This document shows positions 2,272 to 28,746 of a DNA stretch of 41,732 nucleotides, piece after piece. The notes under the pieces are model-generated. The model saw only the letters and a program-made list of their open reading frames with translations. It was not told the DNA's origin and did no database searches. The DNA comes from Acidothermaceae bacterium (lineage in GTDB: Bacteria; Actinomycetota; Actinomycetes; Acidothermales; Acidothermaceae). Position numbers and translations under genes: made by a program. Within the stretch, counting starts at the first letter, position 1; each line of letters starts with the position of its first letter. The stretch is from NCBI GenBank assembly GCA_035653855.1, contig DASRZB010000223.1:1-41732 (forward strand). The letters run 5' to 3'.

Positions 2272-2310
2272 GGTCTTGCCCCTCACGACGGAGACCGTCA
2301 AGTAAGTTGA

Positions 2311-4386: not shown

Positions 4387-4641
4387 CAGGACCCCACTCT
4401 GAAACTGCAGGGAGAGGGCAGTACGGAAGGCGACCAGCGTAGAACCGTGGGCGGCACATCTGCGCAGATCCGCTCCATCAGTTCCTCCCCGGCTGGGTCG
4501 GTTCTCCGTCACCGAGCCGGTACGTCCTATCGGCTCGTCCATGATTACTTTGGCGGCGCAGCGTTCCGAAAGCGTTACGGTCATCGCGAGATTCCGGACT
4601 ACCGTCACAGTCAGCCGTTGAAGGACCTCGGAGGGCGCCAG

Positions 4642-8335: not shown

Positions 8336-9127
8336 ATGGCAGCCCGATTGGCGGTAGTGACCGGCGCGAGTCGCGGTATCGGACGCGCGTTAACGGAGCG
8401 GCTTGCTTCGGCCGGCCAGACCGTGGCGGCGATCGCGCGGTCCGCTGCTGACCTCGAGGACCTGGCTGCTGCGACCGGCGCCATTCCCTTCCCGCTGGAC
8501 GTCAGTGACCCGGCCGGTGTTGAGGACGTCTTCACGCGCATTCTCGCCGAGCTCGGCGTTCCCGATCTGGTGGTGAACAACGCGGCGATCTCCGGCGGCA
8601 GCGGTCTGACCTGGGAACTGCCCGAGCAGGACTGGTGGCGCGTCTTGGAGATCAACGTTCGGGGCACCTATCTATGCACACGCGCAGTTCTGCCGGCCAT
8701 GATGGCCCGCGGTAGCGGCCGGATCGTGAACGTGTCATCTGGTGCGGCGACGTATCCAGTAGGCCTCGACAATGACGGTCAACTGACCTCGGCCTACATG
8801 GCAAGCAAGGCCGCAGTGAACCGCTTCACCGAAGCCGTCGCGGGGGAGTGCTTTAGTGCTGGAGTACGGGTGTTCTCGATGTCGCCAGGAATGGTCAAGA
8901 CAGACATGACCGCCGAGGTGTACCCCGAGATCTGGGACGCCGAAGACGACTGGACGCCGATCGACTTGCCCGTCGACCTGATCGTGGATCTCGACGCCGG
9001 AATGCTCGACGCCCTGTCGGGCCGCTACTTCCGTGCCGCCGTCGATGACTGGCGCTCGTTGGCCGCTCGAGCAGCCGCCGTCATCGACCTCGATACCCAC
9101 GCGCTTCGCGTGCGTGCGCTGCCCTAG
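8336..9127 (+). CDS. short-chain dehydrogenase/reductase (SDR)
   Basis: MAARLAVVTGASRGIGRA (TGxxxGIG), NNAAI, and YMASKAAV (the YxxxK catalytic motif). Confidence 0.9.
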   Translation: MAARLAVVTGASRGIGRALTERLASAGQTVAAIARSAADLEDLAAATGAIPFPLDVSDPAGVEDVFTRILAELGVPDLVVNNAAISGGSGLTWELPEQDWWRVLEINVRGTYLCTRAVLPAMMARGSGRIVNVSSGAATYPVGLDNDGQLTSAYMASKAAVNRFTEAVAGECFSAGVRVFSMSPGMVKTDMTAEVYPEIWDAEDDWTPIDLPVDLIVDLDAGMLDALSGRYFRAAVDDWRSLAARAAAVIDLDTHALRVRALP

Positions 9128-9177
9128 CAGGGATCGCTCAAGCCTTTCATTGCAATGTTGCTAATTGCCGCCGTACC

Positions 9178-9213
9178 CTCTAGCCGTTGAGGTCCTATAA
9201 CGGCTATTCTCCC
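9178..9213 (+). promoter_or_regulatory. 36-bp conserved operator-like element, copy A (TAGCCGTT-N10-AACGGCTA dyad overlapping a TATTCT -10-like hexamer)
   Basis: The sequence CTCTAGCCGTTGAGGTCCTATAACGGCTATTCTCCC is 33/36 identical to 21312-21347. The arms at 9181-9188 and 9199-9206 are perfectly complementary. It lies in the non-coding gap upstream of the ABC importer genes. Confidence 0.6.
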
Positions 9214-9341
9214 AAACCTGGATGCCGGTGCTCCGTTCAGCTCTGGCGGCAGGACGCGCCTAACGGCGTGGCCAAGGCACGAGGTAAGCCGTGGAGGCGG
9301 ACTCCCCTGGTAGATCGAACCGGACTGAAAGGAACGGATTT

Positions 9342-10760
9342 ATGAATCGACGCTTCTTAACGGCAGCCGTCGCGGCCGCGGCCGCGTTGGGGCTTGCCGC
9401 GTGCTGGAGCAGTTCAAGCAATAAGAGCGCACCCAGCAGCGCGGGTACGACAACTGCCGCCAGTTCGGCGGCGGCCGCTAGCTCTGCCGCGGCCCCCAGC
9501 ACCGCCCCAGCTAGCTCGGCCCCGGCCGCCAGTTCAGCTCCGGCCGCGAGTACGCCCCAGAGTCTGACGGTCCAGACCACTGCCTACTACGAACCGCTGG
9601 AAAGGGCCGTCGGCACGCAACTTGAGGCGCAGAACCCGGGCCTCAAGATCACCTACCAACAGGTCAGTGCCCAGCAGGAGACCAGCACGAACCTGCAGGT
9701 CGTGACGTCAAGCTCCGCCCCCGACGTGGCCGACACGCCGATCAACGGCAACGTCTACCCGCAGCTGATCAAGTCCAACCAGCTGCTCCCGCTGGACGAC
9801 GTCTGGACTGCCGACAGCCTGCAAGAAGGCTACGGCGCATCCGTCGCCAACTCCTTGAAGGTGAACGGAACGGCGTACGTCGTCGACTTCAGCAACGTCT
9901 ACTACGGTTTCGCGTGGTACGACAAGGACATCTTCGCGAAGCTAGGCATCCCCGACCCGGTCAACCACTCGATTGCCACGATGGCTGACCTGAAGAAGAT
10001 CACGGACGCGTTGCGCAAGGGTGGCGACCAGCCGTTGCTGATCCCCGGCGGCGGAGAGCAGTACTGGAACTGGATGACGGACGCATTCCTGCCAACGTCG
10101 GCAACGACGGACCAGTTCAACAACTACATTACGAACTTCAACCCCAACGTGCCGGTGACGGTCAGCTACGCGGATCCCGAATTCGCCGCCACGTTCGACC
10201 GGTTGAAGGAGATGTACAACGACAAGATGTTCCAAGACGGTGTGCTCGGCATGAACAACGCGTCGACCCAGGCGCTGTTCGCGTCCGGCAAGGCTGGCAT
10301 GATCATGGGACATGCACTGACTCCCAACGCCGTCGACAAGCTCGCAAACAAGACGTTGAATCTCGATTGGGTGCTGCTGCCCCCGATCAACGCCAACCAG
10401 CCGTCGTTGCCCATCGTCTACAACGGAAACACGTTCTCGATTCCGAAGAACGCGAAGAACCCTGACATGGCGAAGAAGTACCTCGAGCTTCTTCTGAGTC
10501 CTGGTATCCAGCAGCAGATTCCGACCCTGGTGTCTGGCGCAATGCCCGCCACGAAGGTGTCAGGCACTGTCCAGGACCCGTACGGGCTGCTCAAGTACGT
10601 TGCTGACAATGGAGATTACGTAGGCTGGGCAGCGGTCACGCCCGGTGACCTCAACCAGATCGACTCCAAAGTTCAGGCGGTCCTGACCGGCCAGGCGACT
10701 TCCAAGCAGGTTGGCCAGCAACTCGACGCCGTCGTGAAGAAGCTCCGCGCAGGTTCGTAA
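9342..10760 (+). CDS. ABC transporter substrate-binding lipoprotein (family 1 / CUT1 carbohydrate type)
   Basis: Track ORF starts at 9291. I prefer ATG 9342 (MNRRFLTAAVAAAAALGLAAC...), which has AAAGGAA upstream, a signal peptide and a LAAC lipobox. An Ala/Ser/Pro linker follows. Overall length and the two downstream permease genes fit a CUT1 system. Confidence 0.85.
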   Translation: MNRRFLTAAVAAAAALGLAACWSSSSNKSAPSSAGTTTAASSAAAASSAAAPSTAPASSAPAASSAPAASTPQSLTVQTTAYYEPLERAVGTQLEAQNPGLKITYQQVSAQQETSTNLQVVTSSSAPDVADTPINGNVYPQLIKSNQLLPLDDVWTADSLQEGYGASVANSLKVNGTAYVVDFSNVYYGFAWYDKDIFAKLGIPDPVNHSIATMADLKKITDALRKGGDQPLLIPGGGEQYWNWMTDAFLPTSATTDQFNNYITNFNPNVPVTVSYADPEFAATFDRLKEMYNDKMFQDGVLGMNNASTQALFASGKAGMIMGHALTPNAVDKLANKTLNLDWVLLPPINANQPSLPIVYNGNTFSIPKNAKNPDMAKKYLELLLSPGIQQQIPTLVSGAMPATKVSGTVQDPYGLLKYVADNGDYVGWAAVTPGDLNQIDSKVQAVLTGQATSKQVGQQLDAVVKKLRAGS

Positions 10761-10773
10761 CCCACATCGCGAA

Positions 10774-10804
10774 GTCGCCGGTGGTCCAACGGGCCACCGG
10801 CGAC
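10774..10804 (+). promoter_or_regulatory. intercistronic GC-rich stem-loop between the binding-protein and permease genes
   Basis: GTCGCCGGTGG (10774-10784) pairs perfectly with CCACCGGCGAC (10794-10804) across a 9-nt loop. No U-tract follows, so it is more likely an mRNA-stabilising or attenuating hairpin than a full terminator. Confidence 0.5.
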
Positions 10805-10829
10805 ACGCCGAGCAAGGGCACATCAAACT

Positions 10830-11738
10830 GTGACATCCACGAAGGTAATCCGGCCCGAGGGTGGCCGGCGGAACAAGCTGACTTCGCCGTTGGCGATACT
10901 GCTCAGTCTTCCCGCAATCGTGGGGATCGTTGTGGTGTATCTCGTGCCGTTCATCGGCACGATCCGGATTTCGTTCTCGAACTGGGCCGGCGTTGGCCGA
11001 CTCAAGCCGGCCGGCACGGCGAACTATCGCGGCCTGCTCTCGGACTCCACCTTCTACTACTCCCTGCGTATCACGCTGCTGTTCGCGGTGGTGATCACAG
11101 TCGGAGTCATGGTGCTCGCTACTGGCACGGCGATGGCGGTGCGGAACGGACGCGTAGCAAACGTGCTGCGAGTGATCTGGTTCCTGCCGGCGATCGCGCC
11201 ACCCACGGCGATCGCCGTGTATTGGGGCTTTAGCTTCCAGCCGATCTCGGGAGCCGTCAACGGGGTTCTCGGCAAGCTCGGTCTCGGCAGCGGACACGCC
11301 TGGCTGGCCTCGCTTAACGAGGCCCGTTGGGCGGTCATGGGCGTGGCGATCTGGGCGGGCGTGGCGTTTCCGTTCCTGGTGCTCGTCGGTGCGATTGCTC
11401 GGATTTCACCGAATCTGTATGAAGCCGCCGACCTCGACGGTGCTCAGAGATGGCGGCAGGCCTGGCACATCACGCTGCCGATGATCCAACCCGTGCTGGT
11501 GATGATCACCGTGCTGGAACTGATATGGAACTTCAACTCCTTCACGTTCATCTGGGCGATGACCAGGGGCGGCCCGGTGTCGAGTACGTCCACGCTGCCG
11601 GTGCGCCTGTACTCCGATGCGTTCGTACACTTCGATTTCGGCGAGGCGTCGGCAATCGGAGTGATGGCCAGCGTGGTGCTGGTTGCTGCGGGACTTATCG
11701 GTCTTCGCTTCGCTAACTCTCGCAGCGATACCGCATGA
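10830..11738 (+). CDS. ABC transporter permease (MalF/CUT1-type)
   Basis: 302-aa multi-TM protein with a binding-protein-dependent transport signature region (AADLDGAQRWRQAWHITLPMIQP). GTG start. Confidence 0.85.
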   Translation: MTSTKVIRPEGGRRNKLTSPLAILLSLPAIVGIVVVYLVPFIGTIRISFSNWAGVGRLKPAGTANYRGLLSDSTFYYSLRITLLFAVVITVGVMVLATGTAMAVRNGRVANVLRVIWFLPAIAPPTAIAVYWGFSFQPISGAVNGVLGKLGLGSGHAWLASLNEARWAVMGVAIWAGVAFPFLVLVGAIARISPNLYEAADLDGAQRWRQAWHITLPMIQPVLVMITVLELIWNFNSFTFIWAMTRGGPVSSTSTLPVRLYSDAFVHFDFGEASAIGVMASVVLVAAGLIGLRFANSRSDTA

Positions 11739-12574
11739 AACTCCGTTCCTTGCCCGGCGCTGGCAGCTCCGCGCTCGTCAAGCTCGTGTGGACCCTCATC
11801 ATCCTGGTCCCGTTCATCTCGATGATCCTGCTGGCGTTCCGATCGCTTGCAGCCCTTTACAACGACCCGCTCGGCCTTTCCGGCGCCTGGGTTCCAGGGA
11901 ACTTTCGAGAGGCATGGGATGGCCCCCAGGGTGGATCGGGGTTTTCCATCTACGCGCGCAACTCGGTGATCGTCGCGGTCGAGGCGGTGGCGATATCCGC
12001 GGCCTTAGGGTCGTTCGCTGCGTACTTCACGGCGACGCTTGCCCCGAAGTGGCGTCGCCGCGCGATGATCCCAGCTCTAATCGCCCAGACCGTTCCCGGC
12101 ATCGCCTTGGTGATCCCGTTCTTCCAGGCCTTCAACGCGCTCGGCACGCTCAGCAGCCCGGTCGCGCTCGGCGTCCTCTATGGCCTTCTGTGTCTGCCGA
12201 CGACGGTGCTGATCCTCCACGCGTTCTTCGTCGATTTCCCCAGCGACGTACGGGAGGCAGCGGCGATCGACGGCCTCGGCCCGGTCGGGACATTCCTTCG
12301 CATTGTCCTGCCGCTCTCGATCGGATCGTTGGGAACCGTGTCCCTGCTGAACTTGATCTGGGTGTGGGGCGAGACGCTCATCGGCTTGGCCTTGCTTGAG
12401 AACTCGGCTTCTCAGACCATTTCGATCGGGCTGCTCTCGTTCCAAGACAAGTGGCTCGCGAATCCCGGGGCTTTGTTTGCGGGGTTGGCGATGGCGACCG
12501 TTCCCATCACCCTCATCTACCTGATTTTCCACCGTTCGATCAACAGCGGTGTGTCGCTCGGTAACATCCGCTGA
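11735..12574 (+). CDS. ABC transporter permease (MalG/CUT1-type)
   Basis: 279-aa multi-TM protein with EAAAIDGLGPVGTFLRIVLPL (EAA loop). ATGA overlap with the upstream permease gene. No ATPase gene follows. Confidence 0.85.
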   Translation: MKLRSLPGAGSSALVKLVWTLIILVPFISMILLAFRSLAALYNDPLGLSGAWVPGNFREAWDGPQGGSGFSIYARNSVIVAVEAVAISAALGSFAAYFTATLAPKWRRRAMIPALIAQTVPGIALVIPFFQAFNALGTLSSPVALGVLYGLLCLPTTVLILHAFFVDFPSDVREAAAIDGLGPVGTFLRIVLPLSIGSLGTVSLLNLIWVWGETLIGLALLENSASQTISIGLLSFQDKWLANPGALFAGLAMATVPITLIYLIFHRSINSGVSLGNIR

Positions 12575-12577
12575 TCG

Positions 12578-13798
12578 CTACGAGCGCGGAGCGGGTCGAT
12601 CAATTCCCGTATCCGTAACCGGAACTGCCGTGTAACTCAAAGACAGGTACGGAGTTGGAACAGTCCGACGCTCGCGTCGCGCACGCAAGGCTGCCTCCAT
12701 GACGCCGGTTGTTAGCAACGTCCTGGCAATCGGGTAAGGACTGCGGCCGGTCAGCATCAGGCTCTCGATCTGTCGGGTCAAGAAGGTGAAATTGCCGTGT
12801 GCGGGATCGCCGAGCCAGGCTTCCATCGCGATGGTCGTTTCGGGTCCGCGGACAGCGCCGGCGACACGGTGACTCGCCGGCAAGTCGAGGTTGACAACTG
12901 TGAGAGTGGTGCCGTCCAAGTAGTCGACAAGGAAGAGGTCGTCAGCGTTGCTGCCGATGAACGAGATCGGGTCATCGGTCTTGATGGCCAGCGCCTCCAA
13001 TGCCTTCACCAGCAGCTCGGCGTCACGGGGCACGGCTGCAAGCGATGCCGCGATCTTCGATCCGGTGATGGCAGTGACCGCTGCCACGCCGGTCTCGCCG
13101 CCACGCCGACGCTCCAAGAGAGCTTGGACAAATTCAAGGTTGTGGAACCCGCTCATTTCGGTAGGCCGGCAGCCCGGTTCCGATGCCGCGATGCTCACGA
13201 CTGCTGCGCCGGTTACCGGTGAGCCCATCGGCCAGTCGGCACCCTGTGGTATGCGCCACGTCAGCGGCACAGACGAGCCTGCCGACAGCGGAACTCCTAG
13301 GCGGTCGGCATCGGAAACCATGCTGGCCGCATCGATGAAGCTCCAGGCGAGATGCTTGTCAACAAAGACGGGCACCTTCCGGCCTGCGGCGACCATCGCG
13401 GCCACGCTTGCGTCGAACATGCGCCGCCGTGGATAAAGCTTTTGCTCGAACTCACCCCAGCCGTAGTCCCCGTGTTCGCCGATGATCACCACGCCATCGA
13501 CATTCACTCCCGTACCGCCGAGCGAGAGCGCCTCGCCCACGGAGCCGAACAAGGGAATCCCGTGTGAAGTCAGCGTTCTCACGCCTATGTCGATGCACGA
13601 GGTGGGCTCGTTGTCGCTCGAACCGAGTTGCTCGAGATAGACCGATGCGACCTCGATCCGCGCCTGCTGGTGCACGCCGTCCCAGGTATAACCGTCGAGT
13701 AGCCGACCGAGGATGACATCGGCGTGCGACCCCGCGAAGTACACCGAGCACAGCACAGCGACTCGAGGGCGCTCGCCGACGCTAGCGGACATTGACAT
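12578..13798 (-). CDS. hypothetical protein (406 aa); Gfo/Idh/MocA-like layout but no GxGxxG motif
   Basis: Strong GC3 bias. It is the last gene of the minus-strand SDR-mutarotase-dehydratase-M24 unit. The N-terminus (RVAVLCSVYFAGSHADVILGRL...GIPLFGSVGEAL...VDGVVIIGEHGDY) is arranged like a Rossmann-type sugar oxidoreductase, but I see no dinucleotide-binding glycine motif. Function unknown. Confidence 0.6.
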   Translation of the reverse strand: MSMSASVGERPRVAVLCSVYFAGSHADVILGRLLDGYTWDGVHQQARIEVASVYLEQLGSSDNEPTSCIDIGVRTLTSHGIPLFGSVGEALSLGGTGVNVDGVVIIGEHGDYGWGEFEQKLYPRRRMFDASVAAMVAAGRKVPVFVDKHLAWSFIDAASMVSDADRLGVPLSAGSSVPLTWRIPQGADWPMGSPVTGAAVVSIAASEPGCRPTEMSGFHNLEFVQALLERRRGGETGVAAVTAITGSKIAASLAAVPRDAELLVKALEALAIKTDDPISFIGSNADDLFLVDYLDGTTLTVVNLDLPASHRVAGAVRGPETTIAMEAWLGDPAHGNFTFLTRQIESLMLTGRSPYPIARTLLTTGVMEAALRARRERRTVPTPYLSLSYTAVPVTDTGIDRPAPRS

Positions 13799-13852
13799 GA
13801 CTCCTCTTTGATTCGTTCGTCGAATGACGCTGGTTGACCGACAGGACGCCGA

Positions 13853-15025: not shown

Positions 15026-15032
15026 CCAATCC

Positions 15033-16163: not shown

Positions 16164-16176
16164 GGGTGTCGGTTCC

Positions 16177-17225: not shown

Positions 17226-17238
17226 GCGCGCCCTCCCA

Positions 17239-17275
17239 AATACGGTTCCATTACGGCTATATTACGAGGTACGAT
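17239..17275 (+). promoter_or_regulatory. operator-like element, degenerate copy B, with three 11-bp-phased TACGG/TACGA repeats
   Basis: GGTTCCATTACGGCTAT is identical at 14 of 18 ungapped positions to GGTCCTATAACGGCTAT of copy A. TACGG lies at 17241 and 17252, and TACGA at 17263. It sits in the divergent promoter gap between the SDR operon and the SelA-like operon. Confidence 0.4.
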
Positions 17276-17396
17276 TCCCCAGCAACAAGGGGCCCGCGCC
17301 GGACACCTCGGAAAATCCCGAACGCGCCCAGTCTCGACCGAGCAGCCTTGAGTTGCATAGCCAGACCCCGACCAACGCACTGAAGCGGAAGGGCTT

Positions 17397-18566: not shown

Positions 18567-20032
18567 TGGCGACGCACCCATCGCTGTTTAGCGGTCCGTA
18601 CCGGCTTGTCAGCTGGAGTGTCTGTGCGCTCGTCTCGCTTTACGCGTTCGAAGAGATGGGTGTGGTAGCGGCACTACCCACCGCAGTCGGCAAGCTCGGT
18701 GGACTCGCCTATTTCGGCTGGGTGTACACGGGCTTTCTCGCCGCGAGCGTGATCGGCATGGTGTATTCGGCACACGTCTGCGATCAGTACGGTCCTCGCG
18801 TTCCGGCGCTCGCGGCCTCGACGTTGTTTGTTGCTGGGCTGACTCTTGCGGGCACCGCTACTCAAATGGCGCCGCTGGTGGCGGGCCGGGTCATCCAGGG
18901 TGTCGCCGGCGGGGGACTGATGACCGCGGTCTACGTGATCATCGGCACGTTCGTTCCCGAGGCGATACGACCCAGGCTGTTCGCGGTTGTCTCGTTCTGC
19001 TGGGTGGTTCCTGGTGTCATCGGTCCAACCGCAGCGGGTGCGATTACCGAACACGTGGGTTGGCGCTGGGTCTTCCTTGGCTTGGTGCCGCTGACGATTG
19101 CCGCGGCGGCTCCGCTGGTGGTCGCTCTGCCATCTGCAGTCGGCGTTACAAGGCAAACGGACGTTGGTCGCAAGCCATGGCCGGCCCGTGTGGCGGCGCC
19201 TCGAATCTGGAGCGCCGTCGTTGCGGCCGCCGGTATCGCGGCGATCCAGGCCGGAGCCGAGCGCGCCACCGCATCTTCTGCTGCCGTTGTGGCCTGCGGT
19301 GCCGCAGCCGTGGTTTGGGCATTGCGAGGGCTTCTCCCGCGTGGAACCGTGTTGGCGCGCTCCGCAGTTGGGAGCCCGGTCGCACTCCGCGCGATCACGG
19401 CTGGCGCACTCTTCGGAGTCGAATCAGTCATTCCGCTGATGATGGCGACCCAACACGGGCTGGGGCCTCTCCAAGCGTCTATTCCCTTGGCCTGCGCGGG
19501 CCTACCGTGCGCGATCTCATCGTGGTGGGTCGGCCGACTTGGTGGTGAGGACGCAGTCGACAGGCGGACGTCCCTCGCACGACTTGGCTTCGGGCTGCTG
19601 TGCGTCGCCGATGCGTCATTCATCTGGCTCAGTCGACCGGCGACTCCGAGTTGGCTCATGAGCCCGGCGTGGGTGTTGGCCGGCTTCGGGATTGGCCTTG
19701 TGGTCCCGACCGCAAACGTGCTCGTACTTGCGCGGACGACGGACGCGAACCGCTCGGCGGACGCCTCCGCGCTGCAGATTGCAAGTACGACTGCCAGTTG
19801 CGTCACGACCGGCTTCGCTGGCGTACTCGTCGGATCCGCCAGCCGTGGTTCGCTCGGATACACGACGGCCTTCGGCATCATCGGTGTCTCGATGGCGGCC
19901 GTCGCATTGCTCGGCGTCCTGGCAGCAGGTCGACTGAGGCTTGACGTGTCACGCTCAGGAAACAATTATGTCCGTAGTGAGACCGAAATCCAGTCTGCAA
20001 CAGGAGCTGTGAATGCCCGCGACGACCGGTGA
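18566..20032 (+). CDS. MFS transporter
   Basis: 488-aa hydrophobic multi-TM protein. The GTG start overlaps the upstream stop. Contains an MFS-like loop (GRVIQGVAGGGLM). Confidence 0.8.
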   Translation: MATHPSLFSGPYRLVSWSVCALVSLYAFEEMGVVAALPTAVGKLGGLAYFGWVYTGFLAASVIGMVYSAHVCDQYGPRVPALAASTLFVAGLTLAGTATQMAPLVAGRVIQGVAGGGLMTAVYVIIGTFVPEAIRPRLFAVVSFCWVVPGVIGPTAAGAITEHVGWRWVFLGLVPLTIAAAAPLVVALPSAVGVTRQTDVGRKPWPARVAAPRIWSAVVAAAGIAAIQAGAERATASSAAVVACGAAAVVWALRGLLPRGTVLARSAVGSPVALRAITAGALFGVESVIPLMMATQHGLGPLQASIPLACAGLPCAISSWWVGRLGGEDAVDRRTSLARLGFGLLCVADASFIWLSRPATPSWLMSPAWVLAGFGIGLVVPTANVLVLARTTDANRSADASALQIASTTASCVTTGFAGVLVGSASRGSLGYTTAFGIIGVSMAAVALLGVLAAGRLRLDVSRSGNNYVRSETEIQSATGAVNARDDR

Positions 20033-20933: not shown

Positions 20934-20987
20934 CTTGTGCCCCTGCCTGCCGCGCATGAGGGACGGTGGCTTAAAGGACTGTGGTGG

Positions 20988-21272
20988 TTAAAGCCCTGTG
21001 GTGCTCAAGGGATGGGTTGCCAGCGCCTGCACCGTGATGTCCATCCATGGCCATGCCGGCAGCGAAGTGAGTGAACGATGCAGATCGTCGGCGTCCTCGC
21101 ACGACCAGATGGCGATGTTCGCCTGTCGGCCGGGCACCCGCCAGATGTGCACGAGCCTTCCGGTACCCACCAGGTGGATGCCAGCTTGCTCCTCGCGCTC
21201 GTCGAGGTCCGCGCGTTCGGCTGCGGTCATCGTGCTCGGGAGCCGGGTCTCGGCGTGGATGAGGTAGTACAT
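20988..21272 (-). CDS. muconolactone delta-isomerase-like small protein (94 aa)
   Basis: Only the C-terminal 94 aa of track ORF 20988..22247 look real. MYYLIHAETRLPSTMTAAERADLDEREEQAGIHLVGTGRLVHIWRVPGRQANIAIWSCEDADDLHRSLTSLPAWPWMDITVQALATHPL follows the CatC-type pattern (...W R . . G . . A N . . . . D . . . . . . L . . L P . . P . M D I . V . . L . . H P). Confidence 0.7.
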   Translation of the reverse strand: MYYLIHAETRLPSTMTAAERADLDEREEQAGIHLVGTGRLVHIWRVPGRQANIAIWSCEDADDLHRSLTSLPAWPWMDITVQALATHPLSTTGL

Positions 21273-21311
21273 GGTGTCTCCGGGCGCAGGGGGGCTATTG
21301 GCCGCGCACCA

Positions 21312-21347
21312 CTCTAGCGGTTTAGGTCTTATAACGGCTATTCTCCC
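21312..21347 (+). promoter_or_regulatory. 36-bp conserved operator-like element, copy C
   Basis: CTCTAGCGGTTTAGGTCTTATAACGGCTATTCTCCC is 33/36 identical to copy A. It lies in the 78-bp divergent gap between the muconolactone-isomerase-like gene and the M20D operon. The TATTCT hexamer ends 7 nt before GTG 21351. Confidence 0.6.
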
Positions 21348-21350: not shown

Positions 21351-22544
21351 GTGCAGAACGTATCTGGGTCGGCGTCGGCGGTGGATCTGTCGTTGGTGGC
21401 GTTTCGACGTGACTTGCATGCCCATCCTGAGTTGCGTTTCGAGGAGGTGTGGACGGCGCAGCGTATCGCCGCCGAGATTGAGTCGGATGTCGATGAACTT
21501 GTCACCGGAATTGGTGGGACCGGTGTGCTTGCGCGGGTGGATGGAGTTGAGTCCGGTGGTCGGGTTCTTGTGCGCGCGGACATTGACGCCTATCCAGTTC
21601 CTGATTTGAAGGAGGTTGGTTATCGGTCGCAGAACGTGGGCGTCACGCATGCGTGTGGGCATGACGTGCATGCGGCGGTCGGTGTCGGGGTTTTGCGTCG
21701 GTTCGCCCGGGAGCGTCCAAAGCGCGGAAGTGTCTCGGTGATATTCCAACCGGCTGAGGAGATTCCGTTTGGGTGTCCGAGTGGAGCCGCTACTGTTCTG
21801 GAGCATCCAGCTGTGGCTGGTCTGCGCCCGGACGCAGTGCTGGGATTGCATTGTTGGCCGCAGTTGGAGGCCGGGCAGATCGGGATCGACCCGAGCATCG
21901 CCATGGCGGCCAAGGACGCATTCGAGATCGTTGTGAGCGGCACGTCGGCCCATGCTGCGACTCCCGCGCAGGGCCGTGACGCGATTCTTGCCGCTGCGTT
22001 CTTTGTCACGGCTGTCCACGCTGCGGTTGCGCGTCGGCGTGATCCAAGTGAACTGGTGGCTTTGAACGTCGGGACGATTTCGGGGGGGTTTTCCCAAAGT
22101 GTGTTGGCCAGTGAGGTACGCCTGACGGGCACCCTGCGGACCCGAGACGAAGAGCTGCGTCGACGCTTGCGGACCGTGATCGGCGCAGTGGCCGACGGGG
22201 TGGGCGTTCAGTTCGACACGACACTCCAGCTGCGTTGGGCAGATCAAATGCCCGCGGTGCGAAATGATGGTGCGCTGGTCGCACTGGCCCGGGGCACTCT
22301 TGCACGTGTTGCAGATGTCGTGACGTTAGAGGTGGGCTCGATGACCTCCGACGATTTCGCGCTGTACTCGGCGCTGGGGCCGACGCTGTATCTCAAGCTC
22401 GGCGTCGCGTCACCTGGACGCGGTCCGGCGGCCCCGCTGCATTCAGGTCAGTTCGATGTGGACGAGAGTTGCATCCACGTCGGCGTGACCGCGCTCGCCA
22501 CACTGTGTCTAGACGTTCTCGCCCGCTCGACAGGAGGCTCCTGA
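21351..22544 (+). CDS. M20D-family amidohydrolase (hippurate hydrolase / N-acyl-amino-acid amidohydrolase-like)
   Basis: FRRDLHAHPELRFEE...HACGHDVH...IFQPAEE is the canonical M20D pattern. The start is either GTG 21351 (possibly leaderless) or GTG 21381. Confidence 0.85.
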   Translation: MQNVSGSASAVDLSLVAFRRDLHAHPELRFEEVWTAQRIAAEIESDVDELVTGIGGTGVLARVDGVESGGRVLVRADIDAYPVPDLKEVGYRSQNVGVTHACGHDVHAAVGVGVLRRFARERPKRGSVSVIFQPAEEIPFGCPSGAATVLEHPAVAGLRPDAVLGLHCWPQLEAGQIGIDPSIAMAAKDAFEIVVSGTSAHAATPAQGRDAILAAAFFVTAVHAAVARRRDPSELVALNVGTISGGFSQSVLASEVRLTGTLRTRDEELRRRLRTVIGAVADGVGVQFDTTLQLRWADQMPAVRNDGALVALARGTLARVADVVTLEVGSMTSDDFALYSALGPTLYLKLGVASPGRGPAAPLHSGQFDVDESCIHVGVTALATLCLDVLARSTGGS

Positions 22545-22549
22545 ACCTG

Positions 22550-23485
22550 ATGGACACCTTCGACTGCTATCGGCAGATGCGCAGAATCCGTCGCCTTGAG
22601 GAAACACTTGTCGACCTCAAGAACGCCGGAGAAATCCTGGGCTCCGTGCACCCCTGCAACGGGCAGGAAGCGGTACCAGTCGGGGCCGCCACAGCCTTGC
22701 GCTCCGACGACTACATCACTGCCACCTACCGGGGGCATGGGTGGGCTGTCGTCGCCGGGATCGCGTTAGTCGACATCTTTGCGGAGGTGCTGGGTCGCGC
22801 CTCCAACCTCAACGGTGGCCGGGGCGCTTCCCCGTATTTCAGCAGTCCCGGTGTCAACTTCATCGGCGAAAACTCGATTGTCGGAGCGGGATTGCCGATT
22901 GCGTGCGGCGCAGCACTCAGCGCCATGCGCGACGGACGCGCGCAGGTCAGCTTGGTGTCCATTGGCGACGGGGCGACCAACCAAGGCGCCGTACATGAGG
23001 CTTTGAATCTCGCCGCGGTCATGACACTGCCGCTCGTGGTCGTGGTGGAGAACAACGTGTACTCGGAGATGTCTCCTATCGCGGAGATGACGAGAGTGGT
23101 CCAGCTGGCCGAACGAGGCGCTGCGTACGGTATTCCGGCGACAATCGTCGACGGAAACGACGCGGCTGAAGTCGCCGCCGCGGTGGACGCGGCGGTGGCT
23201 CGTGCACGCGGTGGGGGCGGACCGACCATGGTCGAGGCGATGACGCAACGATACGTCGGGCACCACAGTGGCGACGTTCAGCACTATCGGCCGACCGGCG
23301 AGGTGGAGCGGGCGCGGGCGGACGAGCCGTTGGCCAGGCTGCGGGCCGCGGCGGACGATGACACCCTCGTGAAGTACAGCGCCGTCGACATCGAGGTTGA
23401 CGCCGAGATAGACAACGCTCTGACAGTCGCTCGCACGATCCCGGAACCCGACCCTGGCACAGTGTTGGAACACATCTATGTCTGA
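22550..23485 (+). CDS. TPP-dependent 2-oxoacid/acetoin-type dehydrogenase E1 component, alpha subunit
   Basis: ATG 22550 has AGGAGG 12 nt upstream. YRQMRRIRRLEE..., and SIGDGATNQGAVHEALNLAAVMTLPLVVVVENN (the GDG...NN TPP-binding motif). Confidence 0.85.
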   Translation: MDTFDCYRQMRRIRRLEETLVDLKNAGEILGSVHPCNGQEAVPVGAATALRSDDYITATYRGHGWAVVAGIALVDIFAEVLGRASNLNGGRGASPYFSSPGVNFIGENSIVGAGLPIACGAALSAMRDGRAQVSLVSIGDGATNQGAVHEALNLAAVMTLPLVVVVENNVYSEMSPIAEMTRVVQLAERGAAYGIPATIVDGNDAAEVAAAVDAAVARARGGGGPTMVEAMTQRYVGHHSGDVQHYRPTGEVERARADEPLARLRAAADDDTLVKYSAVDIEVDAEIDNALTVARTIPEPDPGTVLEHIYV

Positions 23486-24479
23486 GCCTTCGGGTTCGCC
23501 CGCGACCTCGCTCCGCTACATCCAGGCCGTCCAAGCGGCGCTGCGATGGGCGCTAGAGTCTCGAGACGATACGGTGATCTTCGGAGAGGATGTCGCGAAG
23601 CCAGGTGGGGTCTTCGGCGCGACGAAGGGTCTCTACGAGACTTTCGGCGACAAGCGCATCTTCGACACGCCGATTTCCGAAACGGCCATGCTGGGCATGG
23701 CATTAGGCACAGCGATGACTGGCGGTCGTCCGATTGTCGAAATCATGTACGCGGACTTCATGTTCGTTGCGATGGACCAACTTGTGAACCAAATCGCGAA
23801 CACAAGGTACGTCTCCGAGGGACGCTGGACTGCGCCACTTGTCGTTCGCACCCAACAGGGTTACTCGCCGGGGGCGTGCGCCCAGCACTCGCATTCCATC
23901 GAGGCTTACCTTGCGCACACCCCTGGGCTGCGAGTCGCGGCACCTTCGACCGCAGGCGACGCGTACCAGATGCTCAGGACAGCCATAATCGTCGACGATC
24001 CAGTTGTTGTGGTGGAGGCACGCATGCTCTACCCGACACGAGGCGATGTTCTGCTCGACTCGGAGGTCGAAGAGATGGGCGGCGCTAGGATCCTCAAGGC
24101 CGGCCGCGACGTCACCATAGTCTCGTGGTCGAGCGCCGTTCCTACTTGTCTCGCAGCTGCCGATCAGCTCGCGCGCGAGGGTGTCGATGCGGAGGTAGTC
24201 GACATGAGGTGGCTTAACCCGCTCGACCACAGCACGGTGTCCGAGTCGATTGCCAAGACGCGGCGCGGGGTTGTGGTCCATGAGGCGAACCTGACTGCTG
24301 GTCTGGGTGCCGAGGTGGTGGCGCGTGCTACGGAATCCCTCTTCGGGGTTCTCCAGGCACCGATACTTCGGGTCGCGGCTCCCGACGTCCCGATGCCCGC
24401 AGCTCCTAGTCTCCAGGCCGCGGTGGTCCCGAATGTCGACCGCGTGGTGTCGGCAGTACACGCCACGCTTGGCTATTAG
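23478..24479 (+). CDS. TPP-dependent dehydrogenase E1 component, beta subunit (transketolase-like)
   Basis: VIFGEDVAKPGGVFGATKGLYETFGDKRIFDTPISE...IVEIMYADF...GYSPGACAQHSHS is the typical E1-beta pattern. Its start overlaps the alpha-subunit stop. Confidence 0.9.
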   Translation: MSEPSGSPATSLRYIQAVQAALRWALESRDDTVIFGEDVAKPGGVFGATKGLYETFGDKRIFDTPISETAMLGMALGTAMTGGRPIVEIMYADFMFVAMDQLVNQIANTRYVSEGRWTAPLVVRTQQGYSPGACAQHSHSIEAYLAHTPGLRVAAPSTAGDAYQMLRTAIIVDDPVVVVEARMLYPTRGDVLLDSEVEEMGGARILKAGRDVTIVSWSSAVPTCLAAADQLAREGVDAEVVDMRWLNPLDHSTVSESIAKTRRGVVVHEANLTAGLGAEVVARATESLFGVLQAPILRVAAPDVPMPAAPSLQAAVVPNVDRVVSAVHATLGY

Positions 24480-24509
24480 AGCCTCCAAACCCAAGCGGAG
24501 CGTGCCAAC

Positions 24510-25883
24510 GTGATCGGGATTCTCGGGCCCCGCGACTCCGTCGCCCTCGCCCAACAGGTCGCCGAGAAGCTTGGGCGTTCGGCGGACATGTTGACGCTGG
24601 CGTACCAGCACGTCGACGAAGCAATCGACCTCGCCCGCTCGCTCGAGCCGATGTGTGAGGTGCTGCTGTTCACCGGTGCCGTGCCTTTCGAAAGCGCCAA
24701 GCGGGCCGGAACGTGGCAGTGCGAGCTGGATGTCATCCGGCACTCGCAGGCAGACCTCTATCGCATGATCGGCTTGATCCTCAAGGAGACCGGCGGCAAG
24801 TTCCCGCGGGTCAGCGTCGACAGCCTGGACTTCGACGCTGTCCATCGGGTATTCGCGGACATGGATCTCCCGATCCCCGAGGTCATCATCCCGGTCGTCG
24901 ACGAGGAAGGCGCCTTCGTCTTCGAAGACGTCGAAGGCACCGCTCGCGCCCACTTGGCTGCGCTCGAACGCGGAGATGTTGACGCCGTATTGACGTGTCT
25001 CGACGGCACGCGTCGGTTACTGGTCGCTGCAGGCGCAACCACGTGGCGTATCGACCACGCGTGGGTCACCATCGTCGAGGCGCTTCGGCGCGCGTGGCTC
25101 GCATCCGAAGTCAAGAAGACCAAGGGTAGTTCGATCGCCATCGCCTTGCTGAAGTCGGAGGTAGCTGCGGGGCGTGGCAAATCGAGTGCGACGCGGGCAT
25201 CGATCGATCGGGCAGTCGCCACGCACGCGCGTCGCATGGGGTCACGATTTGTGGTCGACGACGGCCGCTACCTGGTCATGACGACTCAGGCGGCCATCGA
25301 GAAGATGCTCGATCAATACCGCAACGGCCAGAAGTCGCTCGTCGACTTGGCCACCAAGCCGCCGGCCGGCATGACGACGATCCTGGGCGTCGGCTTCGGT
25401 GATACCTTCGCCACTGCTCTCGACTCTGCTGAGAAGGCGTTCCAGATTTCGGGGAGCTCTCACCAACCTGCTTTGGTCCGCGGAAACGGCACCGTGGAGT
25501 CGTTCGTCGATGGGGCTCAGCCCGGGATCAGTTTGCAGGAAACGTCGGACGCGATTCTCAAGCTCGCCGCCCAGACCGGACTTGGGCCACTGTCGCTGCG
25601 CCGATTGATTGCGGCGCTCGGCCGGACTGACTACACCGCTGTCACGGCGCAGCAACTGGCCGAGTTCTACGGAGTCATGCCGAGATCTGCACGAAGGATG
25701 CTGGGTCGGCTGGCCGCGGCCGGATACGCACGCGAAGCTGGTATCCGCGGCTCGGTCGGCGCAGGGCGTCCGCACGTCCTGTATGACGTCGACCTGCCGA
25801 GACTCGGTCAGATCATCGCATCTAACGCCACCGGGGCCCGGCCGCAGAAACCAGACAGACCATCTGGCGGACGTACGCGGTGA
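24510..25883 (+). CDS. putative transcriptional regulator with unassigned N-terminal/middle domains and a C-terminal winged-helix HTH (457 aa)
   Basis: The C-terminal stretch LSLRRLIAALGRTDYTAVTAQQLAEFYGVMPRSARRMLGRLAAAGYAREAG...RPHVLYDV looks like a MarR/IclR-type wHTH. The N-terminal ~300 aa (MIGILGPRDSVALAQQ...LLFTGAVPF...; ...ILGVGFGDTFATALDSAEKAF) match nothing I can name. The middle part is faintly like the GGDEF-like sensor domain of PucR/CdaR regulators. GTG start 30 nt after E1-beta; GTGA overlap with the downstream aminotransferase gene. Confidence 0.55.
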   Translation: MIGILGPRDSVALAQQVAEKLGRSADMLTLAYQHVDEAIDLARSLEPMCEVLLFTGAVPFESAKRAGTWQCELDVIRHSQADLYRMIGLILKETGGKFPRVSVDSLDFDAVHRVFADMDLPIPEVIIPVVDEEGAFVFEDVEGTARAHLAALERGDVDAVLTCLDGTRRLLVAAGATTWRIDHAWVTIVEALRRAWLASEVKKTKGSSIAIALLKSEVAAGRGKSSATRASIDRAVATHARRMGSRFVVDDGRYLVMTTQAAIEKMLDQYRNGQKSLVDLATKPPAGMTTILGVGFGDTFATALDSAEKAFQISGSSHQPALVRGNGTVESFVDGAQPGISLQETSDAILKLAAQTGLGPLSLRRLIAALGRTDYTAVTAQQLAEFYGVMPRSARRMLGRLAAAGYAREAGIRGSVGAGRPHVLYDVDLPRLGQIIASNATGARPQKPDRPSGGRTR

Positions 25884-27259
25884 GCAGCGAGTCTGATGGG
25901 CACGCGGCTCGTCGTGATTTTGGAGCAGCACCAGTCGAGGCGCGCTGGGCTCGATCGGCGCAGGCTTGGGAACGTGCGAAGGCGGTCTTGGGTGGGGGAG
26001 TCAGCACCGGTCTTCGCGCGTCGATGCGGCCACATCCGCTCTTCTTCGAGCGAGGTGAGGGTTCTCGAATTTGGGACGTTGACGGTCACTCGTACCTCGA
26101 CTATGTGCTTGGTTGGGGCCCGCTCATCCTCGGGCACTCCCACCCGAGTCTCGTGGCGGCGGTCGGTCGCCAACTAAGACTTGGGCAGACCTTCGGTGCG
26201 GGTCATCGCGCAGAGTACGAGGTGGCTGAGCAACTTTGCGCGGCGATACCTGGTGCCGAGAAGGTTCTCTGGTCGAATACCGGATCGGAAGCGAACCAGA
26301 TTGCGTTGCGTCTCGCGCGAGCAGCGACGGGGCGGGTGCGGTTCATTAAGTTTTGGGGTCACTACCACGGGTGGTCTGACTCGATGCTCTTCGGCTACCG
26401 CCCGAGCGCGGATGGCTCGTTGGAAGGACTAGCGTCCAAGGGGCAGCATCCAGGTGGACTGGACGATGTGATCTTAGTTCCGTGGAACGATCTCGATGCT
26501 GTGCGCGCGGCGCTTGCTGCAGGGTCAGATTCCATCGCGGCAATCTTTGCGGAACCAGTGCTATGCAATTCGGGCGTCATCGCGCCGGCACCGGGCTTTC
26601 TAGATGGTTTGCGCAAGTTGTGCGATTCCTACGGCGCATTACTCGTTTTCGATGAGGTGATCACCGGGTTCCGAGTTGCCTACGGCGGGGGAAGTGAACG
26701 TTATGGCGTGCCCGCTGACTTGGTGGTGCTCGCCAAGGCGATTGGCGCTGGGTTGCCTCTTGCAGCTGTTGCCGGGCGTGCCGACCTGATCGACCTCACC
26801 ACGAAGGGTGTGGTGCACGCAGGAACTCACAATGGCGGCCCACTGGTGCTCGCCGCAGCTTCAGTGACGCTCACTGAACTTGCACGCCCGGGCATCTACT
26901 CAACTTTCGAACAGCGAGCCGCACGCTTGGTATCAGGGATCCGCGACAGTTTCGAGCGGCACGGCGTCCTAGGCGCCGCCCACCATGTCGGGCCCGTGGT
27001 GCAGGTTGCGCCGGGCATTGCCAGTGTCGGGTCTTTCTCGGACTACTTGTGCGCCGACTGGGATTGGTATGACGCACTGACGATTCAGCTGCTTCAGCGC
27101 GGAGTATTCAACCTGCCGGGTGGGCGTTGGTACATCTCGACGGCACACACCGCCGAACAGATCGACGAAACGGTTGAAGCGTTCGACGACGCCGTTGAAG
27201 CGACAACTAACGGAGTCGGCCTGCCTCAGGCGAGTCCATTGCGCGGCGCACGGTTCTAA
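25880..27259 (+). CDS. class-III PLP aminotransferase (glutamate-1-semialdehyde aminomutase-like subgroup)
   Basis: GGVSTGLRA...HPLFFERGEGSRIWDVDGHSYLDYVLGWGPLILGHSHP...FDEVITGFR...LAKAIGAGLP is the typical GSA-AM/class-III pattern. Confidence 0.85.
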   Translation: MSSESDGHAARRDFGAAPVEARWARSAQAWERAKAVLGGGVSTGLRASMRPHPLFFERGEGSRIWDVDGHSYLDYVLGWGPLILGHSHPSLVAAVGRQLRLGQTFGAGHRAEYEVAEQLCAAIPGAEKVLWSNTGSEANQIALRLARAATGRVRFIKFWGHYHGWSDSMLFGYRPSADGSLEGLASKGQHPGGLDDVILVPWNDLDAVRAALAAGSDSIAAIFAEPVLCNSGVIAPAPGFLDGLRKLCDSYGALLVFDEVITGFRVAYGGGSERYGVPADLVVLAKAIGAGLPLAAVAGRADLIDLTTKGVVHAGTHNGGPLVLAAASVTLTELARPGIYSTFEQRAARLVSGIRDSFERHGVLGAAHHVGPVVQVAPGIASVGSFSDYLCADWDWYDALTIQLLQRGVFNLPGGRWYISTAHTAEQIDETVEAFDDAVEATTNGVGLPQASPLRGARF

Positions 27260-27282
27260 GGGACGACGATAAGGAGCATCCT

Positions 27283-28746
27283 GTGCGGTTCGCCATCGCG
27301 GGCATTCACCATGAATCGAACACGTTCGCTCCGTCAGTCACAGGCGCTGGTGCCTTCGTGAGCCAATGGGGCGATGACATCCGGCTGGCGCACGAGGGAG
27401 CTCAGTCGACCATCGCCGGGTACCTGGCGGAGTGTCGCGCGAACGCCGTTGACGCCGTACCTCTCGTGTTCGCCCAGGCAACCCCGAGTGGCACCATAAC
27501 TGCGGATGCCTTCGAGTTGATGTTGGGTCAACTGGTCGACCTGCTGACCGCCGATGAATGGCACGGTGTCCTCCTAGCACTCCATGGGGCAGCAGTGTCG
27601 GAAGACTTTCCCGATGCTGATGGCGAGATCCTGCGCCGGGTCCGCGAGGCGGTTGGGCCAACGACGCCCGTGGTTGCTGCGCTCGATATGCATGCCAACG
27701 TCAGTCGCGCGATGCTAGAAGCCTCAACTGCCCTCGTGACTTACCGCACGAACCCACACGTTGACGCGGCGGCTCGGGCGGCAGAAGCGGCTCATATAGC
27801 GATCGCGGCTGCTCAAGGCTTTGTTCAGCCGATGCAAAGCCTCGTCATGATCCCGATAGCCCTGAACATCCTTCGACAAAACACGTCCCAGGAGCCTTTG
27901 CATTCGCTACTCCAGCGCCTCGACGATGTTCTTACGCGGCCCGGCATCTTGTCGGCGAGTATCGCGGAGGGTTACCCATACGCGGACGTCCCAGAGATGG
28001 GCATGTCGGTAGTGGTGGTAGCAGATGGCGATCAGGATCTCGCATCGGCCACTGCGGACGAACTCGCCGCGCACGTATGGTCAAGGCGAGGGGAACTCGA
28101 CGCGGTGGCGGTTTCGGTGCGTGCCGCGTTGGTCGGCCTGATGGATGGGAAGGGCGGTCCCGTTCTGCTCCTAGATGTCGGTGACAACATCGGCGGGGGA
28201 GCGCCTGGCGACTCGGTAGTGATCTTGCATGAAGCCTTGCGCTTAGGCTTCGCCGGCCTCTTCATGGTCCTATTTGCCCCTGACGCCGTGCGGGTGTGCG
28301 AACAGGCGGGGCCAGGGGTGACGGTCACACTCCGGATGGGTGCCGCCACCGATCCCTCGATCGGACCGCCGCTGACCGTCGACGCAACGGTGCTGTCGTT
28401 GAACGATGGTCAATTCGAAGACTCCACCCCTACGCACGGCGGACAACGGTACTTCGATGCCGGTCGGACCGCCGTGGTTGAACTCCAAGGCGGCATCACA
28501 TTAGCCCTTACGAGCCGCGCAATCATTCCCGCGAGTCGTGTACAGATGACTAGTCTCGGACTGGATCCATCGCGCTTTCGAGCAATCGTCGCGAAGGGCG
28601 TTAACTCACCGTTGGCCGGTTATTCATCGATCGCCGCGGAGGTACTCGTGCTCGATACACCTGGCTGCGCGGCTGCCGACCTGTCTCGCCTCCGCTACCA
28701 GCACCGTCGCGTGCCTATGCATCCGCTCGATGCCGTCGCGGAGTAG
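27283..28746 (+). CDS. M81-family metallopeptidase (MlrC / microcystinase C-like, DUF1485 N-terminal domain)
   Basis: MRFAIAGIHHESNTFAP...LHGA..., 487 aa, is the typical MlrC N-terminal signature. AAGGAG lies 6 nt upstream of GTG 27283. Confidence 0.75.
   Translation: MRFAIAGIHHESNTFAPSVTGAGAFVSQWGDDIRLAHEGAQSTIAGYLAECRANAVDAVPLVFAQATPSGTITADAFELMLGQLVDLLTADEWHGVLLALHGAAVSEDFPDADGEILRRVREAVGPTTPVVAALDMHANVSRAMLEASTALVTYRTNPHVDAAARAAEAAHIAIAAAQGFVQPMQSLVMIPIALNILRQNTSQEPLHSLLQRLDDVLTRPGILSASIAEGYPYADVPEMGMSVVVVADGDQDLASATADELAAHVWSRRGELDAVAVSVRAALVGLMDGKGGPVLLLDVGDNIGGGAPGDSVVILHEALRLGFAGLFMVLFAPDAVRVCEQAGPGVTVTLRMGAATDPSIGPPLTVDATVLSLNDGQFEDSTPTHGGQRYFDAGRTAVVELQGGITLALTSRAIIPASRVQMTSLGLDPSRFRAIVAKGVNSPLAGYSSIAAEVLVLDTPGCAAADLSRLRYQHRRVPMHPLDAVAE

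Follow-up and report, generated by a model that had tools for sequence, protein, structure and literature searches.

A conserved promoter with a predicted built-in operator upstream of uptake and breakdown operons in an Acidothermaceae bacterium, and its candidate regulator

The stretch of Acidothermaceae DNA analysed here (41.7 kb in full, referred to as the window) carries a 36-bp element in two copies, copy A upstream of an operon for an ABC importer and copy B between a muconolactone-isomerase-like gene (MIase) and an operon that begins with an M20 amidohydrolase gene. Our analysis showed that this element is a real, evolutionarily conserved promoter, into which, as read from its sequence, a predicted operator is built. 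We consider it somewhat probable that the operator is bound by a repressor, namely the 457-aa protein encoded within the M20 operon, and that the uptake and breakdown operons are thereby switched together. The predicted regulon would join about 20 enzymes and two transporters under the control of four promoter regions. An initial annotation of the window had proposed a dedicated cis-regulatory site common to the uptake and breakdown operons, with the geometry of a dimer-bound dyad; the regulon idea was supported by footprinting across related lineages, but the dyad geometry was not. The coordinates of all features are collected in Table 1.

The positions given initially for the two 36-mers, and their three mismatches, were verified. 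The copies are identical at 33 of 36 positions and were the sole two matches at three or fewer mismatches, where 0.00 were expected on the basis of 100 dinucleotide-preserving shuffles. To place them in an evolutionary setting, eight lineages were reached via homologues of the M20 protein and the 457-aa protein, with M20 identities from 99% down to 61%, and the motif scans covered the window together with these and other related metagenomic loci, which are designated by L-numbers such as L001, L003-L008 and L013 (451 kb for the position weight matrix (PWM) of the sites). The block TTTRGGTCCWATAACGGCTATTCT was nearly invariant, being present upstream of the M20 gene in all eight lineages and, in five of them, also upstream of the neighbouring ABC transporter. 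The refuting condition set in the initial annotation, a lack of conservation upstream of orthologous operons, thus does not apply in these independent lineages. In total, 13 distinct sites were found in the eight lineages, each upstream of M20 or transporter genes; the site PWM scored 34 to 42 at these sites and gave no score between 14 and 34 elsewhere, and the motif was absent from the coding DNA of the same loci. Flank conservation was judged on MAFFT alignments of the M20-type sites and of the sites at substrate-binding protein (SBP) genes. The 24 columns that are invariant across the eight lineages all lie inside the element or at its immediate edges, the remaining flanks are unconserved, and the best-conserved columns, at protein identities of 61-86%, are spacer bases, which sigma does not read.

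The arrangement in which MIase diverges from M20, E1 alpha, E1 beta and the regulator is kept in all eight lineages, and the synteny of MIase covers L003-L008 and L013. The adjacent transporter of L008 and L013 is of the Opp type (SBP_bac_5) and unrelated to the SBP_bac_1 type of the window, yet it bears the block. A transporter that has been swapped non-orthologously while its promoter-operator was kept amounts to a clean natural experiment that supports co-regulation.

The flanks of the two copies had been described as unrelated. We found, however, that the 18 nt upstream of the element (9160-9177 versus 21294-21311) are identical at 13 of 18 positions, so that the repeat is about 54 nt long, and at copy B this upstream stretch is the 5' leader of MIase. 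Copy A reads TAGAGG where copy B has the -10 box of MIase, and no divergent gene is present at copy A; together with the 54-nt similarity, this suggests from sequence comparison that copy A may have been derived from a B-like bidirectional promoter. The heptamer ACGGCTA, of which no other occurrence in the window had been noticed initially, was counted four times against 2.6 expected, and is thus uninformative by itself. A search of 596 Gb of GTDB representative genomes, a set outside which the source lineage lies, with the pattern GGNCNNATAACGGCTATTCT (17 bases) returned 26 matches, never more than one in a genome and for the most part from unrelated lineages, so that enrichment was not apparent; the single match in a metagenome-assembled genome (MAG) of the Actinomycetes (L031) is located where an unrelated gene begins. 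In addition, a GC-rich palindrome, GTCGCGAC, was observed at transporter-type sites, where it precedes the element by about 10 nt (L004 14629-14636; L013 ~11422-11430, TCGCGA), and GCGCGC occurs at a similar place at M20-type sites.

In Actinobacteria, a TANNNT hexamer at -12 to -7 directly before the start codon marks a leaderless mRNA. Based on this spacing, TATTCT at the right end of the element was taken as a -10 box and the conserved block as lying at about -10 to -35, and the initial observation that the element overlaps a TANNNT-type hexamer was upheld. At copy B the hexamer falls within the 6 to 8 nt before an ATG or GTG that are typical of leaderless actinobacterial promoters, and no Shine-Dalgarno sequence is present. 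The distance from TATTCT to the GTG is 7 nt in six of the eight lineages according to the called M20 starts (the window, L001, L003, L004, L005 and L013), while the M20 gene of L008 has instead a leader carrying the Shine-Dalgarno sequence GAGGGAGG. Since TATTCT ends 7 nt before the GTG start, the M20 mRNA is probably leaderless, with a transcription start site (TSS) predicted from geometry at 21351. For the importer, the TSS would lie near 9217, which would give a 5' untranslated region of about 125 nt, and for the promoters at 19967 and 17261 it would lie at about 19976 and, on the minus strand, about 17252. The -35 position at the orthologous SBP sites reads TTGTTT, TTGAGT or TGGCTA, and 17 to 18 nt separate it from the -10 box. 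The MIase hexamer, on the minus strand, is of the TANNNT form in five lineages of the M20-type alignment (TAGAGT, TACAGT, TAGGGT, TACTTT and TAGGGT), and the sequence aCTCTAGC retained at M20 sites corresponds to GCTAGAGT on that strand, where the -10 box of the divergent MIase promoter is expected.

The core of the element belongs to a wider class of sites formed by at least two like-oriented units with a period of 10 to 11 bp. We distinguish type 1, the core at the M20 and SBP promoters, from type 2, the AP_endonuc_2-like tandem sites. An 11-mer PWM was built from type-2 sites at non-window loci only, so that training included no window sequence and no type-1 site, and pairs of units were scored 11 nt apart. 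The four top positions of the window under this tandem model were 19967(+), 17261(-), 21342(-) and 9208(-), the next independent score being 9.3. The fourth-best score of 14.2 compares with a maximum fourth-best of 11.4 in 200 block shuffles, and scores of at least 14.2 arose in shuffles at 2e-6 per position. The same top four were obtained when the nearest relatives were dropped from training, and at the seven other loci of the close group the known type-1 and type-2 sites took the top places, below which the scores usually fell off sharply. A first PWM of the 23-bp core had put the 17240 site below 14, whereas the tandem model ranks 17261(-) second.

The site at 19967 has orthologous sites in L001, L004, L005, L006 and L008; that of L004, upstream of AP_endonuc_2, reads TATGACCGTAG followed by TAGGACCGTAA, the units being identical at 9 of 11 positions. 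The site at 17240-17272 overlaps the minus-strand -10 box TAATAT (17264-17259) of the SDR-enolase-M24 operon and faces the DgaE-like/MFS operon; its sequence is identical in L001, and analogous sites occur at L005 8126 and L013 3459. Similar tandems adjoin distant homologues of the regulator in L010, L047-L049, L052, L053 and L055, and three or four consecutive 11-mers precede operons of distant homologues at L057 3648-3692 (-) and L059 ~3675-3717 (-), for example TGCGACCGTAA, TACGACCAGAA, CCAGACCGTAT and again TGCGACCGTAA. Runs of three to four units hint that binding as a higher-order oligomer may occur.

Of the two weaker relatives named in the initial annotation, the one at 17249-17260 is real and lies within the two- to three-unit tandem at 17240-17272 (-), while the one at 32258-32269 belongs to another element. 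It had likewise been stated that all four promoter-bearing gaps carry the element; three do, but the 32258 gap does not, and the site at 19967-19988 had been overlooked. At 32255-32296, where the tandem 11-mer model made no detection, a 15-bp unit is repeated three times, and this repeat may be the operator of the ABATE/CGNR protein; in L003, an 85% relative, two 11-bp units (TGGATAGCGCC and TGGATAGCGTC, ~8363-8384) stand in place of the 15-bp repeat. Only the PWM tandem model was discriminating. A loose regular expression for the unit gave 39 matches against 34 expected and was uninformative alone, an unbiased comparison of 7/8-mers between intergenic and coding DNA gave too weak an enrichment (masking of open reading frames (ORFs) removed some promoters), and repeat finding on ten distant loci returned GC-rich noise only. 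The top 8-mer of the distant set resembles, by eye, part of a tRNA gene. Motifs of the AmtR, KstR and DasR types showed half-site resemblance only, again by eye, with no such regulator linked.

The 457-aa protein is the only regulator found in every motif-bearing locus, and for this reason it is the best candidate and most likely the cognate binder, as predicted from gene content. The initial annotation had named two candidate binders, the winged helix-turn-helix (HTH) protein of 457 aa, which indeed always co-occurs with the element, and the CGNR protein, which was found in only two of the eight lineages. The 457-aa protein had no Pfam or NCBIfam match (E <= 0.001-0.01), and its profile found nothing below E 0.1 in the PDB. 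Its AlphaFold2 model (pLDDT 85.8) was compared by Foldseek: residues 1-205 matched the N-domain of PrpR (PDB 2pju and 2q5c) with TM-scores of 0.73-0.75 at a sequence identity of 12-15%, the middle domain matched GGDEF/cyclase domains and the C-terminal fragment of MabR (9f80), and residues 345-437 matched the winged helices of MarR, ArsR and TFE. Across 22 sequences, R392, S393, R395 and R396 of the recognition helix (PRSARR) and G419, R420 and P421 of the wing (GRP) are invariant. Nucleotides might also be sensed, through the cyclase-like domain.

A word-indexed search found only 26 to 30 relatives of this protein, all unnamed, while 1,187 cluster representatives, most of them full length, were recovered at E <= 1e-10 by an exhaustive profile search. 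At 50% identity the family comprises about 1,200 clusters, which come from uncultured lineages of high GC content (actinobacterium-like) and from Bacillota MAGs. The Bacillota members are labelled "hypothetical" or, once, "GTP cyclohydrolase IIa" (P0301, MEW6227733.1, named so by its source), which is probably a misnomer from the cyclase-like middle domain. Among 17 untrained loci with homologues of 25-37% identity, eight had a best tandem score above the 95th percentile of shuffles, where about 0.85 would be expected, and, as positioned against rough ORF calls, these eight significant distant sites fall within or close to the promoter region of the operon that encodes the regulator. Tentatively, and with slightly less than even confidence, we propose that the 457-aa protein founds an undescribed and fairly widespread one-component family, whose MarR-like winged helix would read head-to-tail 11-bp repeats (~TAKGACCGTAA) over the -10 box; on this proposal, and with the same reservation, the 36-mer would be a specialised version of the operator for bidirectional promoters. 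A testable model of operator, regulon and domains is thereby gained for a protein family that is named in no database.

In the mechanism that we favour, the right end of the 36-mer has a housekeeping-type -10 box (GC-TATTCT) and the left end a weak -35 hexamer, and in copy B the left end also contains the minus-strand -10 box of the divergent MIase promoter. The operator would consist of the conserved spacer and the start of the -10 box (TTGAGGTCCTATAACGGCTATT), which on the minus strand reads as two head-to-tail 11-bp units one helical turn apart; the wider class, with the above unit consensus, is found also on the -10/+1 region of the promoters at 19967 and 17261. When no ligand is present, the C-terminal winged helix would occupy the units and RNA polymerase would be blocked at all four promoter regions. 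The binding of a pathway intermediate by the N-terminal PrpR-like sensor would then release the regulator, and the ABC and MFS transporters, the hydrolase, the thiamine pyrophosphate enzyme, the aminotransferase and the sugar-acid enzymes would be turned on together. Because its gene lies inside the M20 operon, the 457-aa protein would control its own synthesis. Repression by promoter occlusion appears most likely, since the operators are positioned on the -10 region: at type-2 promoters, which are good ones of the sigma-70 type, they reach from -10 to about +15, at copies A and B they reach from -10 to -31 of the forward promoter, and at copy B the operator also lies on the -35 side of the divergent promoter. 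The gene set suggests that the pathway substrate is N-acylated or amino sugar-acid-like.

Several alternatives concern the element itself. It had been read initially as the operator of a dimeric HTH protein, in which the inverted repeat TAGCCGTT-N10-AACGGCTA would be the functional unit, bound by a symmetric dimer. Indeed the arms pair at 8 of 8 positions in copy A and 7 of 8 in copy B and the 85-86% relatives (8, 7, 7 and 7 of 8 in the window's clade), and TAGC is kept at most M20-type sites. Outside this clade, the pairing falls to 2-6 of 8 where 2 would be expected by chance (5-6 at other M20 sites and 2-4 at other SBP-type transporter sites), and the spacer is 9 nt rather than 10 in L004 and L005, so that neither the arms nor the spacing are kept at orthologous sites. 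Predicted promoter geometry explains the left arm better, as a -35 region together with the -10 box from which MIase would be transcribed divergently. The symmetry would then be largely that of two back-to-back GCTAnnnT boxes, because the left arm reads as TANNNT on the minus strand at the MIase -10 position; the same GCTAnnnT box accounts for the kept TAGC, which decays to TAGAGG in copy A. A symmetric dimer site is thus very unlikely, and the case serves as a caution that a perfect dyad in one genome can come from two back-to-back -10 boxes, with no symmetric binding site needed. It is likewise highly improbable that no dedicated regulator exists and that the element is a duplicated strong promoter, a mobile or REP-like (repetitive extragenic palindromic) repeat, or an RNA hairpin or terminator. 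The similarity reaching about 54 nt in the window and the hairpin of copy A (-11.2 kcal/mol, z = -2.2) would fit such a view, but the best conservation of bases that sigma does not read is at odds with a bare promoter, the hairpin falls short of significance at the L004 sites and in copy B (z -0.4 to -1.6) and is not followed by a run of T, and only the 26 scattered single matches mentioned above occur in 596 Gb of genomes. An RNA family or terminator was also rejected directly, as Rfam gave 0 hits in the whole window, no terminator was called at either copy, and the stem is unconserved.

Other alternatives accept the operator and differ in the protein or in the direction of control. The main one is that the same protein at the same site acts as an activator at the weak -35 promoters of copies A and B, where it would replace the -35 contact in the style of PhoB, GlnR or SARP regulators, and repression at the type-2 sites could still hold. 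The tandem units with their 11-bp period are compatible with this, as are the poor -35 hexamers of copies A and B (TAGCCG and TAGCGG); the type-2 promoter, by contrast, carries TTGACG, with an operator placed downstream of the -10 box. We regard it as rather unlikely, however, in that unit A covers the first 4 nt of the -10 hexamer, where a bound protein should clash with sigma, actinobacterial promoters often lack a good -35 hexamer anyway, and the protein has no Trans_reg_C domain according to Pfam. That the binder is another protein is quite unlikely; the candidates would be the SARP-like BTAD-AAA-TPR protein (4360-7461), the ABATE/CGNR protein (30879-31445), or a global regulator encoded elsewhere. 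SARPs bind direct repeats spaced by 11 bp, the SARP-like gene lies 1.7 kb upstream of copy A, and the CGNR gene lies within the island, but as candidates both are weaker, since conservation alongside the motif is seen for neither: no BTAD or Trans_reg_C gene occurs within 8-10 kb of the motif in L004, L006, L008 and L013, and CGNR occurs only in the window and L003. Moreover, sites of this operator class accompany distant homologues of the 457-aa protein even where the neighbouring genes are unrelated. The repressor model, for its part, has several observations to contend with. The units for PWM training were picked by eye, after a regular expression had been designed once TAGGWCC was already seen, which introduces some circularity, and nine of the 17 distant loci are without a significant site. 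The two units of the 36-mer are alike at only 4 of 11 positions, and unit A scores weakly, at 5.1; the near-total invariance of ACGGC between operator and -10 box is explained by the model only in part. MarR- and ArsR-like winged helices usually bind inverted repeats rather than direct ones, the poor -35 hexamers at copies A and B would suit an activator too, and the TSS positions are predictions from geometry.

The element and its targets lie in an island of catabolic genes (Table 1) in a window with a G+C content of 60-70%; a plasmid megablast with 9000-29000 gave no match. Target operon 2 has gaps of at most 30 nt and would form a single operon. The importer of target operon 1 consists of an SBP and two permeases with no ATPase gene, which fits CUT1-type importers that borrow a shared ATPase, and the Opp-type replacements in L008 and L013 bring their own ATPases. 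The 406-aa protein at 12578-13798 (-) has no Pfam or NCBIfam match; L004 and L006 have like-sized Pfam-less proteins (410 and 420 aa) in a like position, between creatininase-like and M24/creatinase-like genes. The MFS ORF as listed (18566-20032) crosses the AP_endonuc_2 promoter and operator (19941-19988), while that of L001 stops just before TTGACG, so the 3' end of the window's MFS gene may be shifted or mis-called. A protein like CnbZ, the 2-amino-5-chloromuconate deaminase, is encoded at 32521-33339 (+) with 222 bits against a cutoff of 220, and CnbZ-like and MIase-like proteins amid amidohydrolases and sugar-acid enzymes make an odd mix for a single pathway. Farther from the element, the large SARP/AfsR-like regulator at 4360-7461 (+; BTAD, AAA_16, TPR) is unconserved in orthologous loci, showed no detectable Trans_reg_C domain in its N-terminus, and probably has an over-extended ORF start; a partner-switching module with two STAS proteins, an anti-sigma-type kinase (HATPase_c_2) and a GAF-SpoIIE phosphatase lies at 1912-4701 (-), and a surface protein of 933 aa, in which seven fibronectin-III repeats and three cell-wall-binding repeats (CWB2) occur, is encoded at 38879-41680 (-).

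Table 1. Positions in the window of the promoter elements, predicted operators, candidate regulator and neighbouring genes
Feature	Position	Strand	Remarks
Copy A, 36-bp element	9178..9213	+	Core promoter of the ABC-importer operon with predicted embedded operator; ortholog-site PWM score 40.8
Copy B, 36-bp element	21312..21347	+	Bidirectional promoter region, MIase (-) and M20 (+)
Predicted operator core, copy A: AATAGCCGTTA followed by TAGGACCTCAA	9187..9208	-	Tandem score 14.2, rank 4 of ~83,000 positions
Predicted operator core, copy B: AATAGCCGTTA followed by TAAGACCTAAA	21321..21342	-	Tandem score 16.2, rank 3
Predicted type-2 operator: TATGTCCGTAG followed by TGAGACCGAAA	19967..19988	+	-10 box to ~+15; score 26.4, rank 1
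Predicted type-2-like operator: GTACCTCGTAA, TATAGCCGTAA, TGGAACCGTAT	17240..17272	-	Score 25.7 (17261), rank 2
-35-like hexamer TAGCCG	9181..9186	+	Left arm of the initially described dyad; 18 nt upstream of the -10 box
-10 hexamer TATTCT, importer promoter	9205..9210	+	In register with the hexamer of copy B; little or no variation among 5 SBP-type sites
-10 hexamer TATTCT, M20 promoter	21339..21344	+	Last T 7 nt before GTG 21351
-10 box TAGAGT, divergent MIase promoter	21311..21316	-	Overlaps the left arm of the initially described dyad
Promoter TTGACG-17-AATTAT of AP_endonuc_2	19941..19969	+	ATG 20013; independently found by consensus scan
Tandem repeat, 3 x 15 bp, consensus TGGATATCGCCGTCA	32255-32296		Directly upstream of the minus-strand creatininase-CGNR-SDR-amidohydrolase block
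Candidate cognate regulator, 457 aa	24510..25883	+	PrpR-N-like sensor, degenerate GGDEF-like domain, C-terminal winged HTH
SDR	8336-9127		Pfam/NCBIfam
Target operon 1: SBP_bac_1 lipoprotein (ATG 9342) and two permeases	9342..12574	+	Pfam
SDR, enolase-superfamily, M24/creatinase-like, unknown 406-aa protein	17225 down to 12578	-	
DgaE-like pyridoxal phosphate lyase and MFS transporter	17397-20032		
AP_endonuc_2	20013-20933		
MIase	20988..21272	-	PF02426, E 1.5e-27; start 21272; divergent from M20
Target operon 2: M20 amidohydrolase, E1 alpha, E1 beta, 457-aa regulator, class-III aminotransferase, MlrC/M81	21351..28746	+	Pfam
Amidohydrolase-SDR-ABATE/CGNR-creatininase block	ends 32238	-	

In comparison to known systems, the layout of the 457-aa protein is like that of the PucR/CdaR regulators (MabR/Rv2242 of M. 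tuberculosis, GabR of C. glutamicum), in that an N-terminal sensor is followed by a degenerate GGDEF-like middle domain and then by a DNA-binding domain at the C-terminus, and the gene lies in or beside the catabolic operon under its control. Several characterised PucR members are activators. The N-domain of the 457-aa protein is unlike theirs in being PrpR-N-like rather than globin-like or PucR-N, and its DNA-binding domain is a MarR/ArsR-like winged helix instead of the all-alpha PucR HTH. Measured against the MabR architecture (PMC11617747), only the middle-domain fold and the layout are common to the two; we found no sequence similarity to PucR/CdaR proteins and no Pfam HTH_30 or GGDEF_2 domain. 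With PrpR, the sigma-54 activator of propionate catabolism, the protein has in common the N-terminal sensor fold (2pju, 2q5c) and a probable small-molecule ligand, but it lacks the AAA+ sigma-54 module and the Fis-type HTH.

The sites of PhoB/OmpR, GlnR and SARP (AfsR) regulators are alike in that 11-bp direct repeats, one helical turn apart, are set against the -10 box and read by winged helices. Those regulators, however, are Trans_reg_C proteins that activate from the -35 region, while the units here overlap the -10 box (type 1) or span -10 to +15 (type 2), as is usual for repressor sites, and the 457-aa protein belongs to neither the OmpR/PhoB nor the SARP family, having no Trans_reg_C or other Pfam hit and a winged HTH with the fold of MarR, ArsR and TFE. 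Similar to the palindromic operators of TetR, MarR and GntR regulators, such as that of KstR (TnnAACnnGTTnnA), the operator overlaps the promoter of a catabolic regulon, and its core ATAAC-G-GTTAT is a perfect 11-13 bp palindrome in L006 and L008; it differs from them in that the long dyad is unconserved, no such gene is linked, and the family-wide signal is of direct 11-mers. With a TANNNT hexamer, a G at -14 and 7 nt to the GTG, the M20 promoter is also like the leaderless -10-only promoters of Actinobacteria, and is ordinary in this respect. In general, the cis element is an ordinary kind of promoter-operator, and the newer part is mainly the unnamed regulator family together with its predicted operator.

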